The notes beneath the pieces were generated by a model. The model had not been told where the DNA came from. It did no database searches and saw only the letters and a program-made list of their open reading frames with translations. From Prorocentrum cordatum (Eukaryota), in assembly GCA_963575745.1 (NCBI GenBank), contig CAUYUJ010000297.1, positions 62,001-115,699 of the forward strand: a stretch of DNA of 53,699 nt, given 5' to 3'. A program made the position numbers and the translations under genes. Positions 1,054 to 26,974 of the stretch are shown piece by piece (position 1 is the first letter of the stretch; every line of letters begins with the position of its first letter).

Positions 1054-2442
1054 CAGAGCTTCGACTGCGGCGCGTCAGTAACAAAGCGAGATTTTTTTCG
1101 TCGCAGCGCGCAGAGGCAATCCGCACGCGCGCTTTGGTAGCCGGGAGCGCACGGCGTACGAATTATCTGGCTACAAGAGGGGGACTGGCGGGGAAGGGCG
1201 GCCGCGAAGGACAGGAGGGAGAGGAGGGCACCCACCACGGAAAGAATTTCAGGATGAGCGCGCCAGAGCGGCCAGCTGGGGCTGACGTGTCCCAGCGATG
1301 GGCGCGGGACGGCATCACGACCACACCCAGGGACCGAAGCCAGGGTTGCAGGCGCTAGAAACATGATGAGCAAGGTGAACCAGTGCGTCAGGAAGACTGG
1401 CCAGAAGAGGGCCCACGGCGGTAGGAGCGGCAGCATCCGAAGGTTCATCACGATGTCGTGAACGTCGGACTTTGCCGCAGAGGAACGGCGCCAGCTGGAT
1501 GCGGAACACGGCCCACATGTCCGAACGAGGAGCGCGGGAGGGGCTGCGCCAGTGCGCCTGGCCTGCAGCAGCATGCTGCTTTGCGAAACCCAGGATGCTG
1601 AACTGCCGAGGCGGTGCAGCAGGGGTTGGAGTGCTGCTGGGGGCGCCCAGTGGCGGCCCGGGCGGCGGGTGGCGGCGCGGGAGGAAAATGGGAGGGAGGA
1701 GCACCGCCAGGCTTGGCTGGCGCACGCATCATAGCCAAGCGGAGCGGGCGTCGCCCGACCGCAGGGTAAGCCAGGCGGTGGCGAGCCCATCCGCTGGAGC
1801 GGCGGGGCGTGGGCGCCGGGCGGGGGCCTGTCCAACGCGCGGCCCTTTGGGGGGCCGCGCGCAGGGCAGAGCCACCAGGGGGGGGGGCGGAAGAAGGGCG
1901 AGCGCGTCATGAGGGAGGGAGCAGCGGAGAGGGGCAGTTACCACGGGGGGCAGAAGGGGCCAGGCCGGGCACAATACGTGAGCGTGTGGCCTGGGCGGGC
2001 AGCGCGCGTGCCAGGAATACCTGTTCGGTGCGCGAACTTACACTTAAGTCGGGCGTGCCCCTCTACAAGAGGAGTATCAAAACAATAATCAGGGGCCGAT
2101 ATAGTGAACATTTAATTTCTTTTTGCATATTTTTTATTCTTCACTGCCGTTTGCAGACCTGTCTGTGACGAGGTTGCCCCTCTTCATTCTTGCGCTGACA
2201 CGATGCAGTTGTGTCGCCTACGGCACGGACGTCGTCCGGGTGTGCCTCTCGGTCCTGCTCGTATCTGATGGGCAGCGTGCGGTGCGCAGAGAGACTCGAC
2301 CGCGAGGCAGAAGCAGAGTCACATCGTCAGCAGCTTCCTCCCCTCACCCTCCTCCTCCTCCTCCTCCTCGTCCTCCCCCTCGTCCTCCTCCGCTTCCTCC
2401 TCCTCCTCCTCCTCCTCCTCCTCCTCGTCGTCCTCCTCCTCC

Positions 2443-4035
2443 AGTGCCGCCGAAGGATAACTCGGGCAGGTGGATTGTCAAATGCGGTACAGCAGATATG
2501 GCTAGTGGCGTCATATTTACTGATGGAGCATGTAATAATTTCTGGTACTGGCCCGAAGCGTCTCGTGCGGGATGGGGGTTCGCTAAGCTGGTGGATGATA
2601 AGATTGATCTTCTAGTATATGGTGCTCTCCCTGGGCCTGTGCAGTCCTCACCGCGGTCTGAGCTATATGCCTTCTTGCAGGTTTTGCAGATAGCCGTCTT
2701 GCCTTTATTAGTATACTCAGATTATAAGGGCCTGATCGAAGGCCTCACCTGGGGACCTCATTGGTGTAGACATCCTTCTAGGCCCAATGTTGATCTTTGG
2801 GGCCTAATTTGGACCAAGATCGACGATCTAGGAGGCCTCTCGGATAGTTTAGAAGTTCGACACGTGCGAGGGCACCAGCGAGGCATGGACGTCTTGGCGC
2901 GGGGGAACCGATGGGCCGACTTTGGGGCGACCAGGGGGCGGGATTTGCACTCGGTTCCCCGACGGCATGTCAAGGCCATGCGGATTGCTCTGAAGTCTGT
3001 TCGGTTGGTTTTGAAATCGCAGGTTGAAGCGTTGTTGGCCTTCGCTGCACATGGACGCGTCACTACTGTGCCGCGACGGGGCAAGAAGCCCACTCAGGCC
3101 AGGCAGGCCAAGAGTGATGCTGACCCCACCCCCCTCCCTCTCACCTGGCTCACGCCTTCTCGCAAGTGCCGAAGCGCCTCATTTGGAGGTGTAATTTCTG
3201 CATGAAAGGTGCCACGGCCAAGAGAGCGAGGGATCGTCTATCTCGTATAGCTTGTTTTGCCCGTGTCCTGGCGTCGAGGTCTTTCGACATGAGTTCGAGG
3301 GAGCCCCCGCGGATGCAGGGATGTGTCGCAGGTGACCAGGCCAATGCGGACTCCTCCCAGGATCTCACGGGCCCAGCCAGTGTCCCGCAGGAGGCCCCCA
3401 CTAAGCGAATGGGTGATTTTCTGGCTCGCTCAGGCTCGTCTGATGATAGGGACGTGAGGCCGCGTGTCACTTTTGCCCCAATTCAACGCGTCTTGGCTCC
3501 AGATGCCGATGAGCTGGCCTTGGCGCAGAGGCAAATCCTGGAGCCAAACTCTAAACGCAGGAAGATGGGCAGGCCCGCGCTGGCTGAGTCTACTGTCCCT
3601 GCGTGCCCGCTGCCCGCGTCTGGTATCGTCGGGCACTTATGTGCGCGTGGCCACCGATGTTGGGTCAGCCCAGGTCAGGTTGTTCTGTGCATTAAGTGTG
3701 GCTTTTTACACTACTGGAGTTGCAGGCCACCTGCTCCTGGATTGCACTGTCCCTCAAGTTTTGTCGGAGAGGGCTGCCCGTAACAGGAAGTTATTTTTGG
3801 AAGGCCTTCACCCAGCTGACGAGGGTGCCACCAGCAGCCGTCGAATTCCCGTTGCTCGTCCATTGCTCGCCAGTGACCCAGAGGTCACATGGCTAAGGCT
3901 GGGATGAGCTGCCTATGTTTGAGCCCGTTTCTGGTTTCTGGTCTCGGGGCTCCTTGGGCTTTCTTTCTGGGCGGCCTCCTGCCGCTTCGGCCCCTGGGAA
4001 ACTCCTGGTCGGCCAATTCGCTTGTGTTTTGTTTG
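2443..4035 (+). mobile_element. 5'-truncated non-LTR retrotransposon: RNase H domain plus frameshifted Cys-rich C-terminus
   Basis: RNase H1-like motifs are intact at about 2510-2950 (IFTDGAC, RAGWG, SSPRSELYA, VYSDY, DLW, HVRGH, GNRWAD). CxxC motifs (CNFC, CIKCG) follow in shifted frames, with a stop at 3905-3907. The element starts right after a (CCT)n tract. The 3' end is approximate. Confidence 0.8.
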
Positions 4036-14608: not shown

Positions 14609-15433
14609 GAGCAACCAGTGTGGTGCGACTGAAGATTGCACCGCATCGATTGCACTGCGGAGATTGCCCCGCATTGATCGGCCCTTCACAGATTGCTCTG
14701 CATAGCCCTCTCGCCCCCCAATTGCGGCGAAACTATACTCCTTCTCGTCCCTGGAGGTGATATCCCGCCCCCAGGCCCCCCAGTGCGGGACCCCACCAAG
14801 ATCATAATAAGGTTCCTGAGAATTCCTGAATATTCTTGGGAATTCCAAAATGACTCTTGAAGGATTCTTGAGGATCCGTGGCTCCCACCGCCCCTCCCCC
14901 CCGAGGAATTATTTAATGAATTGAGGTGCCAGGGATAACGGGGGGATGGCCCATAAAGGGTTCCCAGGTCTATATTACACTGCGCACTCTGCATCGCGCA
15001 TTTGACATCTTAGAGTATGCTAGGACACACCGTTTGGGGTCCACGCCGGCTAACACATACATGTCGGTGTGTATGCATACAGGTATGTGTATAGGTAAGT
15101 GTATGCTTACGTGCACTTGTACTTGTACGTCTGCGTGTACGTGTAGGAGTAGGTGTGCGTGTGTTGACGCCCTCCAGCTTGCCGAGATGCTTTCCAGACG
15201 CCCTGCGAAGCCGCACTGGGCTGCTCTTCAGGCGCGAGGGTTTCTGACAAGCCTCGCCGCCGCCTGCCACGGCCCGCCCCCTCTCTCGCCTCCCCTCTGG
15301 GGCGCGCCGCCGGGAGAGGCGACCGCCCGCGAGCCTGGCCGCACTTCGCCGGGGGGGGGGGCGCACCCGCCGAGCGCGCCCGCGAGCCCAGCCACCCTCC
15401 GCGGGGCGGGTGGGACCCGCCGAGCACGCAGGG

Positions 15434-15515
15434 ATGGCCCTGGCCCTGGACCTGAAGGCCCTGAAGTCCCGGCTCTCGAGGGAGGGCGCGCAGTCTGGCG
15501 CCGTCACGGCCTCCC
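15434..15515 (+). CDS. Exon 1 of a YfaP/DUF2135-like - ankyrin - BRCT multidomain gene (MALALDLKALKSRLSREGAQSGAVTAS-L)
   Basis: ATG at 15434 and GC3-rich codons. RLSREGAQSGAVTASL resembles the RLxREGAxxGxVxxSLxW start I recall for YfaP/DUF2135-like domains. The 3' boundary can slide from 15515 to 15521. Confidence 0.8.
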
Positions 15516-15520
15516 TCATC

Positions 15521-15840
15521 TCCGGGGGTTGCCAAGAGGTGCTCCGGGCCCCAACGTGCCCCTGGCTCCCAGCGCCACTCTCGAGCCCCTGGGGCCCTCT
15601 GGCGTCTCGCTGCGGAGAAACCACGACTGAGGATTACGGGGGCCTTTGCTGGGCCCCGGGACCGTCAAATAACGACTCAGGATGAAAAGCCAGTCCCGGG
15701 GAAGGGGCCCAGACCTCTGGGGAGCCACGCTGTTGAACAGTCACGCCTCGCGGGGGGTGCTCTGGAGGACAGCGGCGCCTCCCTTTAGGCAAGCTGGGGC
15801 CGCCTTGGGGCCCGGCCGCCCTTTCTTGGAGAACGCCCGG
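15521..15840. mobile_element. Diverged copy of the 26810 MITE forming intron 1, with a nested ~135-bp repeat (about 15611-15745)
   Basis: Colinear similarity to 26810-26974; ends CCGGGGGTTGCCAAGA / TCTTGGAGAACGCCCGG are complementary; the nested part resembles 28795-28925 and 29858-29945. Confidence 0.75.
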
Positions 15841-15917
15841 TGCTCTGGAACGACCCCAGCGACCTGGACCTGCACGCCCGCGTCAAGCGGAACGGGCAGG
15901 CCCACACGGAGCACATA
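15841..15917 (+). CDS. Exon 2 (LWNDPSDLDLHARVKRNGQAHTEHI)
   Basis: Carries the WNxxxDLDLH motif of YfaP/DUF2135-like domains and joins exon 1 in frame if 325 nt are removed. Confidence 0.85.
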
Positions 15918-16029
15918 GCCAGCTGCCTGCGGCAAGTCCCGCCACCGTGCCAGCCCAGCGTTCGGGGTGGCCGGGGGAGGCCGCAACGTGCAACGCTTCG
16001 GGCCTCTGGAAGGCTCTGGGGGCCTGTTG

Positions 16030-16222
16030 TCGGGGGCGGCAAAGAGGGGGCTGATGATTAGGGGGGGGGTGGATATCATGGCGAGGGCCATGATATTTCC
16101 GCAGATTTCATGGCGCCTCTTCTTATTCCATTACGTCCCTGGCCCCCCCGCTGGGCCGCGCACATGCCGCCGGTCATGATTTGCATCTCCCTCTTGGACA
16201 CCCCTCTCTTGGCCGCTCCCGA
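16030..16222. mobile_element. MITE with TCGGG...CCCGA TIRs (about 21 bp) and 5-bp TSD TGTTG
   Basis: TGTTG at 16025-16029 and 16223-16227; TCGGGGGCGGCAAAGAGGGGG pairs with CCCCTCTCTTGGCCGCTCCCGA. Confidence 0.85.
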
Positions 16223-16277
16223 TGTTGGGTGCCTCCCGAGGGGGCTGGGAGGCTGCCTCACTGCGTTGGAGCCGAGG

Positions 16278-16390
16278 TCGAAGGGTTGCCAGAGGCCGCC
16301 CTGTCCCAAGGTGCCCCCGGCTTCGTGCCACGCTCCGGAGCCCACGGGGCCCTCTGGGCTTTGCGAGGGGTGCTCTGGAGGCCGTGGGAG
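16278..16390. mobile_element. 3'-truncated copy of the 26810 MITE
   Basis: GGGTTGCCAGAGG..CCCTGTCCCAAGGTGCCCCC...GGGGTGCTCTGGAGGCCGTG matches 26812-26916. Confidence 0.75.
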
Positions 16391-17600
16391 GCGGGAGGCT
16401 CCCCTGGGCCCTGAGCTCTGAGCGCTGCAGTTTTTTCACACCGGGTTTTCTCGATTTGTGTCGGGACCTGGGGCCGTTACAGATCGATCCGGCTCGAAAG
16501 ATGGTGCAGAAAGGTGGGGTCTGGGGCTGCGATGTTGCATCGTTTCGTAGTGTCTGATTTCAGGAAACGTCCTGGGGACACCCTGGGTCAGGGGGCACGT
16601 CTGGTAACACGGGACCAGAGCCCTTTTTCTCTAGGCCTCCTAGATGGGGTCCGAGTAGACGGGTCGGAGGATCGCGCCACAACGCCGACGCATCGGCGAT
16701 GCGGCTCGATGTGGAGTCCGAGTTTCTTCGCGCCGACGTCGCCGATGCATCGCCGACGTGGCCGGTGCATTGCCGATGCATTCGTGATGCGTCGACGATG
16801 CTGCGCGACCCTCCGACCCCACCTGCGCAGACCCCAGCTGGGAGGCCTCTGCCTGCGGAAGAGTGGAGGACGGGACGAGCAGAAGCAAAAGCGGAGGTTC
16901 GCGTTTGTGCGGACCACCTCTCGGGTCGGCGTCGGGCGCCCCACCCTCCCCCGCACTCCTGGAAGGGGGGCCCCGGCCGCCACGGGGTCGGCGCCAGAGG
17001 GCGGGCCAGCGCCGGCCCGAGGCATCTGCGCGGGCCGCCGCATTTCTGCGGCCCTCGTGAGCAAAGTCGTGGCTTCGTTGGGTGGCCGTTTTCGTATTCG
17101 TTGCTCTGCCGATCGGCGCGGGCCCTCGGTCCCCCCCCCTCCCCCCCTCTGGGGTTGATGCTCCAGCCTACCTCTAGCCTTGACCACCAGAAAGAATTTC
17201 GAGCACCAGAAGAGTACTGAAACTCGAGGGTTTTCACGTGTCGGGCCCTGGGAGACACTCGTCCGACACTGCTTCGACACTGTTCCGACACTCTTTCGAC
17301 ACTTCTCCGGGTGCTCGAACGTATTTCTGGGATGTGATCCTTTCGTACGACGGGAGCAACATAACTCTGGGGTAAATCTTGGCTGTGTTGGCGCCTGCTT
17401 CAAGCAGGTGGAGTCTCCCCGACGGGGCGCACTGCTGCAAACAGGCGCGCCAAGCAGAGGTCCAGAGCCAATCCCCCCCCTCCCTCCCCCCCTCCGCCAA
17501 ATGTCGAAACGCCGAATAAGAAAACGCTCACAAGGAGCAATGAGATACAACAGCCGCAGGGGTGCCCGACGCGCGCCTGCGCTGCGAGTGCGGTGGCGGA

Positions 17601-18185
17601 TTCTACGGCCACAAGAAGGCCGCCGGGGGGTACCTCGACGTCGACATGAACGTCCGGGACTCTGGCAAGGGCTTCTCCCTGGAGCCAGTCGAGAACATTT
17701 TCTGGAAGAACCCTCCTGGAGGGCAGTATAGGGTCTATGTGACGAATGCTGGCACCAAGAGCCATCCCACGAAGTGGGACGGGAAGTTCACGGATCAGGC
17801 GAGGAGCGTACCGTTCAAGGTGTTTCTCGACAGGGACGGTGAGATGGAGGAGTTCGAGGGAGAGTGGTCCCCGGGCTGCAACGAGATAGAGGCCTTCACG
17901 TTCGAGGTCGAGGGTGACGGCAGCGTCGCCGACACTGGAGGAGGGGGCAATTATTTGGTCTTCCCGCCAGAGGATGACAAGACGACGTTCAAGGAGCTCT
18001 GCGACAAGCACGGGGTGCCGTGGAGGATCGGCGGTGGGTTCTACGCCGTGGCCCGCAAGGAGAAGATCCAGGCCGGCAAGGAGATGCTGCTGCAGCACCT
18101 GGCCAGCAACAATTTCACGATCGGGGGGCAGAAGTGCAGGGATGCCCTGGGGTGGTCCGCGGGAGAGGTGAACATGGGCCCCAAG
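17601..18185 (+). CDS. Exon 3: rest of the YfaP-like domain (FYGHKKAAGGYLDVDMN...PVENIFW...GQYRVYV) and the start of a second domain (GGGFYAVARKEKIQAGKEMLL...CRDALGW)
   Basis: 195 open codons with strong GC3 bias and LDVDMN / PVENIFW motifs; ends at an AAG|GA donor. Confidence 0.9.
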
Positions 18186-18522
18186 GATGCCCTCGAGCCT
18201 CCTCCTCCTCCTCCTCCTTCCCCACCTTTTACAGTCAAGACGCTGATGTAAGGACGGCTTTGGGCTTAGGAGGGGCTCTGGTTTTCGGACCGTTCCCTGG
18301 ATCTAGGTCTGGGAACCCACTCGTGGCCGAGGCTCGCCGTGGCCAGGAAGGCCCCTTCGGTTCTTGTTCAGCGGTCCATGTGGCAGCATGATGGCTGTAC
18401 TCCTCTTCCTGCCCCATTCCTCCTTCCCCCTCTGTCCACCCTCCCTGCATCCTCCTCCGTCCTCCTTCTCCCCCTTCGCGTCAGCCTCGTCTTGGTCGCC
18501 GTCCACCTCCCTGGCCCCAGAG

Positions 18523-19053
18523 GACATCCTCGAGGGTCACCGCCTGTTCGTGCAGTCCACCTCCGCCAACCGTGTGATCCAGCCGGGCACCCACGTGCTC
18601 TTTGAGGTCGACGACGCGATCTACGCCAAGCACCAGAAGACCAGCGAGATCGCGGAGGACGAGCACAAGAAGACCGGGGCCATTGAGCCGAAGTCCCCGG
18701 CCAAGGCTAAGGCCAAAGCCGAGCCCAAATCCCCAGCGAAGGCGAAGGCCAAGGCCGAGCCCCCAGCCAAGGCAAAGGCGAAGGCCAAGGCCGAGGCAGG
18801 CGCCATCTCGGAGGCCGACCAGCACGCGTTTTTGGATCTCGCCAAGGACTACAACTGGGACGCGGTGAAGCGCATGGTCAACGAGAAGCCCCTTATTGTC
18901 TCGGCGCACCCTGCCCAGAGGTGGTCCGCGCTTCACCAGGCGGCCGCCTCGGGTGACGAAGGCGTCGTCCGCTTCTTGCTGGACAAGGGGGCCTCGGTCG
19001 ATGTCACGAACAAGGAGGGCCAGACCCCGGCAGACGTTGCCGCGAATGCGAAG
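18523..19053 (+). CDS. Exon 4: LFVQSTSANRVIQPGTHVLFE motif, Lys/Ala/Pro linker and ankyrin repeat (RWSALHQAAASGDEGVVRFLLDKGASVDVTNKEGQTPADVA); may instead run on to the TAG at 19090-19092
   Basis: AG acceptor at 18521-18522, in frame with exon 3; clear ankyrin consensus (ALHxAAxxG...V..LL..GA.V...N..G.TP). Confidence 0.9.
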
Positions 19054-20082
19054 ATTAAACAGAATTACGCCGCATCCGCCGACGCCTTTTAGTTTGCTAT
19101 TTCATGCATGTTTCATTTCGGTTGTCAGTCTTGCATTGCCGTACGGTTGTGATGAAGGTGCTGAACGACTCGCACGTGGCTTCTGTGCTGGCGGTTCCAT
19201 GCAGCCCTACCCGAATGTAGTGTGAGCGGGGAGTTACTTCGCTGCCTCTTGCCTTTTCTCCTCCTCGTGCTCATTCTCCCTCCCCTCTTCGGTGCTCTCG
19301 TGGGGCCCTTTTGTCTTGGGAAACCTTGGGGCTGTCTTGGACTTCCTTGGGAGCTCTCTTGGGCCGCCTTGGGGCCCTCGTGGCCACCTCGGGGTCTCTT
19401 GGGGGCGTCTCGGTACCCGCTTGGGAGCGTTGGGTTGTCCTGGGGCTCTCTTGGGCCGTCGGCCGTCCGGGGCTCCCGAGGCCTGCTTGGAGCCGGGTGA
19501 GGCGCGCGGCCGCCGTGCAACAGAACAGCACGTGGTGGCTGCCTTTGGGGTGCCGTCTGGGTGCCGTCCCAGCCTCCCGACGCGCCGACTTTGTCGCGAC
19601 CTGGGCCCCCCGAGGTCTGGGCCCCTTCAGGCAGGAACAAAAACACCGCCGAGGACCAGTGGAAGTGCCGTCTGTGTGTCGCGACGCGGGGGCCTCGGAC
19701 GCCCCAGAGGTCTGAGCGGCCCGCATCGAGAGCGGCGGTGCTGCAGTGGACGGTTCGCCCTGCAGCATGTGCAACCGTTGCATCGTGGTTGCGACCCCCG
19801 TGCAAGGCGCCTGCAAGTGTGTTGCAAGCGTCGTCTTGGTCCATCTTCGGGCCGTCTCTCGGAGGGGGGGGAAAGGTACCAATACCGCTCCGCTGCTCGT
19901 CCGCACGGCTGGCTTCTCCTCGAACATCTGGTCAGACTGTACCGCGGGAGAGGTGAGGGGGGCATCTGGAGGGGAAAAACACAGACACATTTCATCGACA
20001 TGGGAGCATATAGGAGAAGTGGGGGGAAGACGAAAACAGTGAAAATATGGGAAATATGGGGAATCCTTGGATTTGTGTCTAT

Positions 20083-23000
20083 TTCCCCACATGTTTCGTG
20101 GGGTTCTGGTTTTCTTCCCTGCCGCGTCGTATCCGCGTCTCACACCCGCACACACCTCCCTCTCCCGCAAAGCGTATCAGACGTGACATACATATATACA
20201 TACACAGGCACACCGACACAGACACATACACACAGACACACAGACACACACAGACACAAACACGCATACACACATACACCCTCACTCACGCGCAACACCT
20301 GCACGGCACGTACATGAGACACCAAAGGAGGTGCGCAGGGGGTGGTCCCTGAGCGCGGCCGCTATCCGAGCCGGTTGTCCAGGGCAAAGCAGGAGTGGCA
20401 CTTCCTTGACACCATAGGGGGTGCGCAGGAGGTGGTCCCTGAGAGCGGCCGCTATCCGAGTCGGTCGTCCAGTGCATAGCAGGCGTGGCATTTTCTCGAC
20501 ACCACAGGGGGTGCGCAGGGGGTGATCCCTCACCGCGGCCGCTATGCACGACGGTCGTCCAGTGCATAGCAGGCGTGGCATTTTCTCGACACCATTGCGG
20601 GTGCGCAGGGGGTGGTCCCTCAGCGCGGCCGCTATGCACGACGGTCGTCCAGTGCATAGCAGGCGTGGCATTTTCTCGACACCACAGGGGGTGCGCAGGG
20701 GGTGGTCCCTCAGCGCGGCCGCTATGCACGACGGTCGTCCAGGGCATAGCAGGCGTGGCATTTTCTCGACACCATGCGGGTGCGCAGGGGGTGGTCCCTC
20801 AGCGCGGCCGCTATGCACGGTCGTAGCAGGCGTGGCATTTCTCGACACCACAGGGGTGCGCAGGGGGTGGTCCTCACCGCGGCCGCTATGCACGACGGTC
20901 GCATAGCAGGCGTGGCATTTCTCGACACCATGCGCAGAGCATGCACGGGTCGGCATAGCAGGCGTGGCATTTTCTCGACACCACAGGGGGTGCGCAGGGG
21001 GTGGTCCCTCACCGCGGCCGCTATGCACGACGGTCGTCCAGTGCATAGCAGGCGTGGCATTTTCTCGACACCACCGGGGAGGGGGTGGTCCCTCACCGCG
21101 GCCGCTATGCACGACGGTCGTCCAGGCATAGCAGGCGTGGCATTTTCTCGACACCATAGGGGTGCGCAGGGGGTGGTCCCTCAGCGCGGCCGCTATGCAC
21201 GACGGTCGTCCAGGGCATAGCAGGCGTGGCATTTTCTCGACACCACAGGGGTGCGCAGGGGTGGTCCCTCGCGGCCGCTATGGCGTCCAGGGCATAGCAG
21301 GCGTGGCATTTTCGACACCATAGGGGATAGGGCGGGTGGCGACAGGGGGTGGTGGTCCCTCAGCGCGGCCGCTATCCACGACGGTCGTCCAGGCATAGCA
21401 GGCGTGGCACTTTCTCGACACCACAAGGGGGTGCGCAGGGGGTGGTCCCTCAGCCGGCCGCTATACGACGTCGTCCATAGCAGGCGTGGCATTTCTCGAC
21501 ACCACAGGGGGTGCGCAGGGGGTGGTCCTCACAGACGGTCGTCCAGGCATAGCAGGCGTGGCATTTTCTCGACACCACAGGGGGTGCGCAGGGGGTGGTC
21601 CCTCACCGCGGCCGCTATGCACGACGGTCGTCCAGGGCATAGCAGGCGTGGCATTTCTCGACACCATAGGGGGTGCGCAGGGGGTGGTCCCTCACCGCGG
21701 CCGCTATGCACGACGGTCGTCCAGGGCATAGCAGGCGTGGCATTTTCTCGACACCATTGGGGTGCGCAGGGGGTGGTCCCTCACGCGGCCGCTATGCACG
21801 ACGGTCGTCCAGGGCATAGCAGGCGTGGCTTTTCTCGACACCACGGGGTGCGCAGGGGGTGGTCCCTCACCGCGGCCGCTATGCACGACGGTCGTCCCCA
21901 GGGCATAGCAGGCGTGGCATTTTCTCGACACCATTGGGGTGCGCAGGGGGTGGTCCCTATGCACGACGGTCGTCGCATAGCAGGCGTGGCATTTCGCAGG
22001 GGTGGTCGTATGCACGACGGTCGTCCAGTGCATAGCAGGCGTGGCATTTTCTCGACACCATTGGGGGTGCGCAGGGGGTGGTCCCTCACCGCGGCCGCTA
22101 TGCACGACGGTCGTCCAGTGCATAGCAGGCGTGGCATTTTCTCGACACCATAGGGGGTGCGCAGGGGGTGGTCCCTCACCGCGGCCGCTATGCACGACGG
22201 TCGTCCAGTGCATAGCAGGCGTGGCATTTTCTCGACACCATAGGGGGTGCGCAGGGGGTGGTCCCTCACCGCGGCCGCTATGCACGACGGTCGTCCAGTG
22301 CATAGCAGGCGTGGCATTTTCTCGACACCACGGGGGTGCGCAGGGGGTGGTCCCTCACCGCGGCCGCTATGCACGACGGTCGTCCAGGGCATAGCAGGCG
22401 TGGCATTTTCTCGACACCATAGGCGGTGCGCAGGGAGTGGTTCCTCACCGCGGCCGCTATGCACGACGGTCGTCCAGTGGCACTTTCTCGACAGTCGTCC
22501 ACAGGCGTGGCATTTTCTCGACACCACAGGGGGTGCGCAGGGAGTCCTCACCGCGGCCGCTATGCACGACGGTCGTCCAGGGCATAGCAGGTGTGGCATT
22601 TTCTCGACACCATTGGGGGTGCGCAGGGGGTGGTCCCTCACCGCGGCCGCTATGCACGACGGTCGTCCAGTGCATAGCAGGCGTGGCATTTTTCGACACC
22701 ATTGCGGGTGCGCAGGGGGTGGTCCCTCACCGTGGCCGCTATGCACGCCGGTCGTCCAGGGCATAGCAGGCGTGGCACTTTCTCGACACCGTGAAGGTTG
22801 CGCAGGGGGTGGTCCCTCACCGCGGCCGCTATGCACGACGGTCGTCCAGGGCATAGCAGGCGTGGCATTTTCTCGACACCATTGGGGGTGCGCAGGGTGT
22901 GGTCCCTCACCGCGGCCGCTATGCACGACGGTCGTCCAGGGCATAGCAGGCGCGGCACTTTCTCGACACCATAGAGGGTGCGCAGGGGTTGGTCCCTCAC

Positions 23001-23452
23001 CGCGGCCACTATGCACGACGGTCGTCCAGGGCATAGCAGGCGTGGCGCTTTCTCGACGCCAGACGGGTCGCGCACGGGGTGGTCCCTCAGCGCGGCCGCT
23101 ATGCGCGCCGGTCGTCCAGGGCATAACGGGCGTGGCATTTGCTTTACACCACAGGGGGTGCGCAGGGGGTGGTCCCTCACCGCGGCCGGCATGCGCTCCG
23201 GTCGTCCAGAGCATAGCAGGCGCTGCATCTTCTCGACGCCACAAGGGGGTGCCTTGGGGGTGCGGTCGCTATCTGTTTCGGGCTCGCAAAGTGTGGCTGG
23301 CGCGGCGCTTCTCCTCTTCCACCTCTCCTCTTGAGTGGCGTCACCAACGGTATCGGCGGGGCAACGGCCACCAACATCATTCCCACATGCTTCTATTCAG
23401 CTATCATCACTCCAGCCATGATATAAGTACGTGGGGTTCCTCGGTAGCGTAA
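20083..23452 (+). mobile_element. Helentron-like element, family B1, carrying the 90-bp satellite
   Basis: 5' end TTTCCCCAC-loop-GTGGGG-TTCT; 3' end CCATGATA...GTGGGG...GTAATT. It splits a copy of the ATATGGG dispersed repeat at a T-rich site (compare intact copies at 5818-6040 and 25415-25563). Confidence 0.7.
20318..23262. repeat. 90-bp tandem satellite, roughly 33 units, each with a NotI site and a GCTATGCAC...GTGCATAGC hairpin
   Basis: TCGTCCAGTG recurs at 22021, 22111 and 22201; indel-rich zone at about 20760-22020; diverged units at both edges. Confidence 0.95.
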
Positions 23453-23747
23453 TTATTTGTGTGTCCCAGGGCCCCTTTGGAGCAGCAGTGTCGGTGCTTC
23501 TCTTGCCCCCCCCCGTCTGGGGCCGTCCCGGGCCCTCCTGCGCCCCGCCCTGGGGCCCTCCTGGCCTGGCTTGCGGCCCCGACGCACGGTCCGTGCCCCC
23601 TACGGGAGAGCCCGGCTCCTCCTCCTCCTCCTCCTGCTCCTCCTGCTCCTCCTCCTCCTCCTGCGCCTCCTCGTCCGAGTCTGCCAGGGTGGATCCCGAG
23701 AGGAGGCTCGCACGCAGGGTGGCCCCGACGAGGGGAGGGGTCCGCGG

Positions 23748-24056
23748 ATCAAGGCCATGCTCAAGAAGAGGAGGGCCGAGGCGGAGCCAGAGGGCAGGCC
23801 CAAGGCGAAGGCGAAGGCGAAGGCCGGGGCGAGTCTTGCCGGGAAGAAGGTTGTCTTTACAGGGACCCTGTCGACGCCGCGTGCCACCGCCACGTCGGCT
23901 GCTCAAGCGGCGGGGGCAACGGTGCTCAGCGCGGTATCTGGCAACATGGACGTGCTGGTCGCTGGCCCGGGTGCCGGCGCGAAGATGCAGAAGGCAGAAG
24001 ATCTTGGCAAAGAGGTGTGGGATGAAGACAAGTTCAAAGCTGCGGTGGGGCTCTGA
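23748..24056 (+). CDS. Terminal exon, or a stand-alone gene from ATG 23757: BRCT domain (LAGKKVVFTGTLSTPRATATSAAQAAGATVLSAVSGNMDVLVAGPGAGAKMQKAEDLGKEVWDEDKF)
   Basis: Matches the BRCT pattern of NAD-dependent DNA ligase/RFC1/PARP types (GKxxVFTG, GA.V..SVS..TDxLV.G..AG.K..KA..LG..V..E..F). TGA at 24054-24056 is followed by lower-GC, UTR-like sequence. Confidence 0.9.
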   Translation: MKAMLKKRRAEAEPEGRPKAKAKAKAGASLAGKKVVFTGTLSTPRATATSAAQAAGATVLSAVSGNMDVLVAGPGAGAKMQKAEDLGKEVWDEDKFKAAVGL

Positions 24057-26809: not shown

Positions 26810-26974
26810 TCGGGGTTGCTAAAGGTGCCCCTGTCCCAAGGTGCCCCCAGCTTCTCGCTCCACTTTGGAGCCACTGGGCCATCTGGGCCTCGTGAGGGGT
26901 GCTCTGGAGGCCGTGTGGGCCTCCTCGAACATCCTGGGGGCACCTTGGGCCAGGGGCACTTCTAGCAACCCCGA
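26810..26974. mobile_element. MITE with ~40-bp TIRs (TCGGGGTTGCTA...TAGCAACCCCGA) and 5-bp TSD CCTTC
   Basis: Near-perfect TIRs; CCTTC at 26805-26809 and 26975-26979. Confidence 0.9.

Follow-up and report, generated by a model that had tools for sequence, protein, structure and literature searches.

Here, we report that intron 2 of a five-exon, 527-codon gene of the dinoflagellate Prorocentrum cordatum (stretch 15917-17599) is skipped in RNA at a junction that is real and non-canonical, the skipped sequence ending in AG in neither of its two possible registers. The gene lies in a window of 53,699 nt, the whole stretch of DNA that was analyzed (GenBank assembly GCA_963575745.1, contig CAUYUJ010000297.1, positions 62,001 to 115,699 of the forward strand); coordinates are those of the window, and exons, introns, and the elements nested in them are given on the plus strand. 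Probably this sequence truly interrupts a Prorocentrum gene that is expressed, and it is probably removed from precursor mRNA (pre-mRNA) outside the G[T/C/A]..AG rule. It would then be an AG-independent, transposon-derived intron of the non-canonical kind known from Amoebophrya, here in a free-living host.

Junction of intron 2

Twenty-four sequencing runs were listed, and 18 contain part of 15400-18700. These 18 hold 26 to 31% of the words of that interval, the share that the exons alone would give, and none reaches half. Four of the 18 (X1, X3, X9, and X13, from studies P1, P3, P4, and P5) were aligned to 15200-19400. Each of the four yielded one ~2.0-kb contig in four pieces, the first starting at 15335 to 15384 and stopping at 15518, the others covering 15844-15916, 17600-18183, and 18521-19055. 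Compared with the exons of the window, the contigs have no mismatches in X1, X3, and X9 (about 1.3 kb) and one G>A difference in X13. The contigs are processed transcripts, because an ordinary GA..AG intron (intron 3) is skipped in the same contigs.

All four runs join 15916 to 17600 and skip 1,683 nt, which is the non-AG junction that the first-pass annotation had predicted from a protein motif. No letters lie between the joined sides, and hence intron 2 contains no micro-exon. The joint is ambiguous by 1 nt (an A), and only two registers reproduce it, 15917-17599 (AG..GG) and 15918-17600 (GC..GA). The border bases at 15910-15920 and 17580-17610 are as that annotation described them: exon 2 ends in ...CAC AT(A), followed by GCCAGC, and the intron ends in ...GGTGGCGG(A), followed by TTC TAC GGC. 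Just as direct as the joint is the observation that no G[T/C/A]..AG pair yields the observed message. Nested or recursive splicing cannot supply an AG acceptor, because the bases abutting exon 3 are fixed; an AG generated by editing of the pre-mRNA was considered as a further way to a canonical end.

Exon 2 (15844-15916; transcript pieces, translation, and tblastn) encodes ..WNDPSDLDLHARVKRNGQAHTEH-I, and exon 3 (17600-18183; transcript pieces and translation) encodes -FYGHKKAAGGYLDVDMN ... GPK-D. Across the intron 2 site the spliced message reads ..TEHI-FYGHKK.. in frame; if intron 2 is retained, the frame meets a stop codon at 16059-16061. Two protein searches returned 13 and 18 proteins; one bacterial protein (P0032) was dropped, leaving 30, of which 24 span the junction. 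In these homologues the spacer between DLDL and LDVDM is 20 to 27 residues long, and 14 of the 24 have the 26 residues of the spliced message. Removal of intron 2 is thus needed for the conserved frame.

Other introns of the gene

Intron 1 (15519-15843, 325 nt) is skipped by a joint from 15518 to 15844 in all four runs; its registers are TC..GC, CT..CT, TC..TC, and CC..CT, and its border repeat is TCT. Intron 3 (18184-18520, 337 nt) has five registers and an AGGA repeat, and its flanking pieces stand in one record in each of the four runs. Its register 18186-18522 reads GA..AG followed by G, which is of the ordinary dinoflagellate type. A 42-nt piece of intron 3 (18276-18317) is a dispersed repeat: it is also present in other transcripts, where X1, X3, and X13 show identical foreign sequence around it. 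From contig arithmetic and protein co-linearity we infer a fourth intron of 4,694 nt (19053-23746 in the leftmost register, 19056-23749 in the rightmost) with a GAT repeat and no AG-ending register (GA..CG, AT..GG, TT..GA, and TA..AT). Three of the four introns (1, 2, and the inferred 4) therefore have no G[T/C/A]..AG register. Direct repeats of at least 1 nt occur in 46% of random site pairs, so the 1-nt repeat of intron 2 is at chance level; the 3-nt repeats at introns 1 and 4 are of a kind found in 6% of random site pairs.

Repeat content and origin

Intron 2 is a composite of nested repeats. Intron 1 is one long terminal hairpin of a repeat family that resembles miniature inverted-repeat transposable elements (MITEs), with copies at 16283-16386 and 26811-26973. 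The first of these copies is a fragment nested in intron 2 (blastn, 77% identity to 15526-15602 and 82% to 26813-26915), in which the 5' arm of intron 1 recurs at 16283-16357 (77% identity). Two palindromic elements are also nested in intron 2, one at 16661-16819 (pair I1, 34-nt arms, 85% complementary) and one at 17187-17330 (pair I2, 27-nt arms, 81% complementary). The copy outside this gene, at 26811-26973, is a near-perfect hairpin with arms of about 45 bp; with CCTTC on both flanks as an apparent 5-bp target duplication, it resembles a MITE insertion of younger age.

The 5'-terminal 40 nt of intron 2 (15919-15958) also occur in other transcripts with different upstream flanks: contigs of X9 and X13 match 15919-15955/58, and X3, X9, and X13 each show a different sequence before 15919. 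Neither these upstream sequences nor the loose-end letters of other contigs were found in the window. The first 40 nt thus look like the terminus of a dispersed repeat that starts 1 to 2 nt inside the border, and their sharing among different flanks points to an origin of intron 2 by insertion. The repeat content is observed directly, and on that content a transposon origin seems the natural reading. No second full copy of intron 2 was found in the window, where internal pieces of it recur. No Pfam domain was found in open reading frames (ORFs) of at least 100 amino acids (aa) in introns 2 and 4 (24 intron ORFs, nothing above the cutoff).

The intron-bearing locus shows signs of being both old and transcribed, because the copies of the intron 1 family are only 77 to 82% alike and an X1 contig of low depth aligns inside intron 1 (15634-15795, one 1-nt gap). 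The arms of intron 1 are themselves imperfect. Two parts of intron 2 (16046-16327 and 16610-16750) have very high contig depth in X3 (bin means, 922, 206, and 343), in short contigs only; these are abundant transcribed repeats from elsewhere in the genome. In a further X1 contig (depth, 20.5), the match stops at 15600 and resumes at 16366 after 11 nt of different sequence. Most likely this contig stems from a different expressed copy of the intron 1/2 repeat family and does not represent a splice of this locus.

Comparison with known introns

The standard dinoflagellate intron has a G[T/C/A] donor, an AG acceptor followed by G, and an identical, repeated, AGG-containing boundary (Mendez et al. 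2015, PMC5032977; Roy et al. 2020 preprint). Intron 3 fits this description (GA..AG followed by G, with AGGA), and intron 2 has one of the standard donors, GC, in register 15918-17600. Intron 2, in contrast, has GA or GG as its last two bases, is followed by T or A, and carries no AGG at its borders; where the repeated boundary would be 2 to 9 nt containing (A)GG, its repeat is a single A. For core dinoflagellates, a 2024 review (PMC11453091), the Roy et al. preprint, and a review of transposon-derived introns (PMC11282704) all describe G[T/C/A]..AG, and the Amphidinium carterae genome paper speaks of "nearly universal AG splice acceptors" (PMC12584245).

For P. cordatum itself, Dougan et al. 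(2023, PMC10666404) score 2.4% of introns as introner elements, which carry an inverted repeat at either end, and find AGG acceptors at 79.7%, below other free-living species. The gene models were made with tools that accept GT, GC, and GA donors only, and the donors in Table 2 of that paper sum to 99.9%. Those introner elements come from the same organism; non-AG junctions like that of intron 2 are not reported in the passages of that paper that were consulted.

The closest likeness is with the parasite Amoebophrya, in strains A25 and A120 of which more than 60% of introns are non-canonical and carry no dinucleotide signature (Farhat et al. 2021, PMC7789003). According to the same source, 11 to 30% of this non-canonical group have inverted repeats of 8 to 20 nt and direct repeats of 3 to 5 nt, and U1 is reported missing. 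Like these, introns 1 and 2 here have RNA-supported junctions with neither GT..AG nor any fixed signature, are non-coding and repeat derived, and belong to the same phylum; like some of them, intron 1 has terminal inverted repeats and a 3-nt direct repeat, and its ends can fold together. Unlike Amoebophrya, which is a parasitic, early-branching syndinean with a compact genome (introns surveyed, 40 to 1,000 nt), the host belongs to the core dinoflagellates, lives free, and has a genome of several gigabases. Unlike the Amoebophrya introners, intron 2 is a 1,683-nt composite with chance-level pairing and a 1-nt repeat; a border direct repeat of 3 to 5 nt, which marks introners (Farhat 2021, Dougan 2023), is seen at intron 1 (3 nt) and not at intron 2. 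As for inverted repeats of 8 to 20 nt within ~30 nt of the ends, intron 2 has a 9-nt complement between +23..+31 and its last 9 nt, unusual only as a perfect match and not by energy or fold.

The nonconventional introns of Euglena (PMC12501133) likewise have no GT..AG and have borders that slide owing to short direct repeats, and their removal is thought to rely on pairing near the ends. The lineage is unrelated, however, and intron 2 does not carry the Euglena code (N3-CDG ... CH'G-N5-6, followed by a purine): register 15917 has CAG at +4..+6 and 3' triplets GGT and CGG, and register 15918 has neither. By analogy, the tunicate Fritillaria borealis, in which transposon-derived non-GT/AG introns are cut by an adapted U2 spliceosome (PMC11282704), may offer the favored model of the machinery; this is, however, an animal lineage.

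Other intron classes were also considered. Rfam placed no family at gathering score on either strand of the whole window, and hence no group I or II intron. The U12 type (AT..AC) was rejected on the ends of intron 2 (AG..GG or GC..GA), the donor box being compared by eye with the consensus. Neither bulge-helix-bulge (tRNA endonuclease) nor IRE1-type stem-loop sites were seen by eye against consensus sequences, an inspection that does not amount to a test. Among metagenome relatives (80 loci kept), the nine close ones (L001 to L009, 1.4 to 1.6 kb) look like intronless transcript contigs and the rest are distant and mostly of bacterial type; no orthologous intron was found among them.

Probable removal from pre-mRNA

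On the reading that we favor, the cell would excise intron 2 precisely and pass over all six AG dinucleotides that lie within 76 nt of its 3' end. The agent would most likely be a spliceosome with relaxed or differently specified boundary recognition, and the pairing between the intron ends is probably a remnant or a coincidence and not a ruler for the cuts. Removal would act on RNA from this very locus, to which the signs of its age and transcription point.

Several points weigh against this account. The RNA evidence consists of assembled contigs and not raw reads, so that rare isoforms may drop out, and it comes from transcripts and not from the DNA of the strains. X13 is recorded as a poly(A) RNA library; the RNA label of X1, X3, and X9 is presumed. 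No contig in the four runs crosses an exon-intron 2 border; parts of intron 2 (e.g., 16892-17173 and 17456-17596) have no contig cover in any of the four runs, and contigs cannot prove absence. These data contain no lariat, branch point, or other mark of the spliceosome, and they concern one gene only. Surveys of core dinoflagellates report nearly universal AG acceptors (PMC12584245, PMC11453091), with aligners preset to G[T/C/A]..AG.

Alternative explanations

Pairing between the ends of intron 2 could itself join the exons and set the cuts, as the first-pass annotation proposed by analogy with intron 1. The two helices that it had pointed out both exist. One is an imperfect 15-bp stem running from G15918 to C17597 (15918-15933 with 17581-17597), and the other is a perfect 9-mer complement (15939-15947 with 17591-17599) that extends to a 12-bp helix. 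The 5' arm of this helix (15939-15950) contains the 9-mer, its 3' arm (17588-17599) ends at the last intron base in the leftmost register, and when intron 2 is folded at full length, this helix closes the minimum-energy structure. In the same gene, intron 1 forms a hairpin of high significance, and there are precedents in the introner elements of Amoebophrya (PMC7789003) and in the nonconventional introns of Euglena (PMC12501133).

By energy, the ends of intron 2 pair no better than shuffled controls, a comparison that the first-pass annotation had suggested. The end duplexes of intron 2 at 30, 40, and 60 nt were equaled by 271, 364, and 311 of 500 dinucleotide shuffles, against 41, 0, and 0 of 500 for intron 1 (z = -4.4 and -5.1). 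With the helix anchored at the termini (start no more than 4 nt, end no more than 7 nt away), 85 of 300 shuffles and, among natural decoys of matched GC content, 36 of 300 equaled intron 2 (-21.7 kcal/mol); for intron 1 (-23.9 kcal/mol) the counts were 1 of 300 shuffles and 17 of 300 decoys. The full-length folds have 14 pairs between the first and last 50 nt in intron 2 and 38 in intron 1, and 6 of 45 natural 1,683-nt decoys close their ends as well as intron 2 does. What stands out is the length of the perfect complement: few GC-matched decoys (71 of 5,000) have one of at least 9 nt linking their two terminal 40-nt segments, and the terminal 9-mer complement specifically was found in 5 of 5,000, a post hoc statistic. 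The pairing in intron 2 is thus mostly no more than chance.

The geometry of the two introns differs as well. Counted in the leftmost register, intron 1 leaves tails of 3+3 nt unpaired and intron 2, depending on the helix, tails of 1+2 or 22+0 nt, so that the distances from helix to cut are unlike. The ends of the inferred intron 4 do not pair (the longest complement is 0, and 261 of 300 decoys attain its anchored energy of -8.6), and the Euglena code is absent from intron 2, as noted above. Structure guidance is well founded for intron 1 and unsupported for intron 2, and one intron cannot settle it; as the explanation of the intron 2 junction we consider it unlikely.

Alternatively, the difference could lie in DNA: this copy of the gene would be a pseudogene with three insertions (introns 1, 2, and 4), and the message would come from an insert-free copy or allele with identical exons and intron 3 only. 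Dinoflagellate genes are highly duplicated (PMC10666404), 3-nt repeats flank introns 1 and 4, the hairpin of intron 1 is MITE-like, and the transcripts of the four runs nowhere enter intron 2 from an exon. On the other side, the exons are identical to the message in three of the four runs, yet the inserts look old and composite, and the X1 contig within intron 1 suggests that the insert-bearing locus is transcribed. The 3-nt repeat of intron 1 against the 5-nt flanks of the family copy at 26811-26973 fits decay of an intronic copy. Among the 31 protein matches, from weak, word-based searches, none is a genome-predicted P. cordatum protein spanning the N-terminal domain, and protein P0011 is a truncated model of the same locus. 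We regard an insert-free source of the message as distinctly improbable.

Ordinary GC..AG splicing of 15918-17588, with a shorter junction that is minor or artefactual, had been raised as a caveat in the first-pass annotation. The frame upstream of exon 3 reads ..CECGGGFYGHKK, so a join from GC at 15918 to the AG at 17587-17588 is indeed in frame and adds CGGG to the protein; GC is, moreover, the commonest donor in P. cordatum gene models (51.4%; PMC10666404, Table 2). This AG, like the other five of the final 76 nt, is left unused in the contigs of all four runs, in which 15916 to 17600 is the sole joint at full transcript contig depth; an mRNA encoding CGGG and a micro-exon, either of which would have spoken against the predicted junction, were looked for in the contigs, and neither was seen. 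The homologue alignment that had been proposed as a check agrees, since the 30-residue spacer expected from four extra residues occurs in none of the 24 site-spanning homologues. Contig joints and homologue spacers together refute GC..AG as the main form, which is very improbable indeed; a rare isoform of this kind may exist.

Scarcely credible is an artefact of contig assembly or of reverse transcription (template switching over a structure or repeat, a source of false non-canonical junctions at short repeats), since the same joint recurs in four studies at full transcript depth, no contig shows an unspliced alternative, the direct repeat amounts to just 1 nt over a span of 1,683 nt, and removal is needed for the conserved frame.

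Gene model and flanking sequence

Once the RNA joints are applied, the frame is open from an ATG at 15434-15436. Exon 1 (15335-15518; contig starts and stop in four of four runs, tblastn of homologues) holds the 5' untranslated region and the start codon and encodes MALALDLK...TASL-I. Exon 4 (18521-19055, its exact end within 19052-19055; transcript pieces and Pfam) encodes ILEGHRLFVQ ... ankyrin repeats ... ANAK-I. The coding part of exon 5 (23750-24056; tblastn of P0003, P0007, P0009, P0012, and P0013) encodes K-AMLKKRRAEAE ... BRCT ... AAVGL and a stop. We infer its start at 23750 because every one of the four runs has its exon 4 piece stop at 19055, 77 nt stand in the X9 record before letters at 23827, and the model is co-linear with P0015. 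This 529-residue protein, from a transcript-sized contig, is 91% identical to the five-exon model over its full length and co-linear over 527 of 529 residues.

The protein consists, in order, of an N-terminal domain without a library match, ankyrin repeats (Pfam matches), and a C-terminal BRCT domain of the LigA/RFC1 kind (seen in close homologues). The YfaP/DUF2135 label first given to the N-terminal domain is unconfirmed: searches of Pfam, NCBIfam, and PDB sequences gave no match, and its only relatives of that sort are distant and of bacterial type. P0014, a protein from outside the window, combines a relative of the N-terminal domain with a DVNP (dinoflagellate viral nucleoprotein) domain; this fusion and the BRCT domain here hint at a chromatin-related role for the N-terminal domain.

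The G+C content of the window is about 60%, and that of the published P. cordatum genome is 59.7% (PMC10666404). The translation of the flagged exon (P0001) matches only dinoflagellate-type proteins, including a Ceratium transcriptome protein, and P0011, a partial protein of Prorocentrum cordatum, is 98% identical to it over the shared part. P0011 (window 18072-19092) starts inside exon 3, treats the lysine/alanine-rich part of exon 4 like an intron and leaves it out, and reads past the exon 4 border into intron 4 until a stop; it has no exons 1, 2, and 5, and the first 190-odd residues are missing. A Pfam search of the 139 plus-strand ORFs of at least 100 aa in the window found only an RNase H fragment and one match without a passing stretch, and no second gene. 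The RNase H domain (E = 1.1e-8) lies in an open frame at 2108-3202 on the plus strand, probably a retroelement fragment.

Significance

Among dinoflagellates, introns with arbitrary ends have been described only in the two Amoebophrya strains; for core dinoflagellates our searches, which took in few subscription journals and not the final paper of Roy et al. (2023), found no report of non-AG introns. The present junction suggests that free-living dinoflagellates also have an intron kind like that of Amoebophrya. As a transcript-verified exception in a culturable, bloom-forming species, it would mark the trait as more than a quirk of one parasite, and Prorocentrum as an organism in which the removal mechanism could be studied. 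Tentatively, and with somewhat more doubt than belief, we extend this to the proposal that a pathway independent of AG and agnostic to boundaries removes a sizeable share of the introns of free-living core dinoflagellates, or at least of Prorocentrum; it would go back to an ancestor in common with Amoebophrya or have evolved anew under transposon invasion. The exception would also be a warning of bias in current dinoflagellate gene catalogues, as this locus illustrates: the public protein misses the N-terminal residues and the BRCT exon and runs into an intron. If such a pathway exists, annotations that hard-code G[T/C/A]..AG would systematically truncate or miss genes of this kind, as has happened here.

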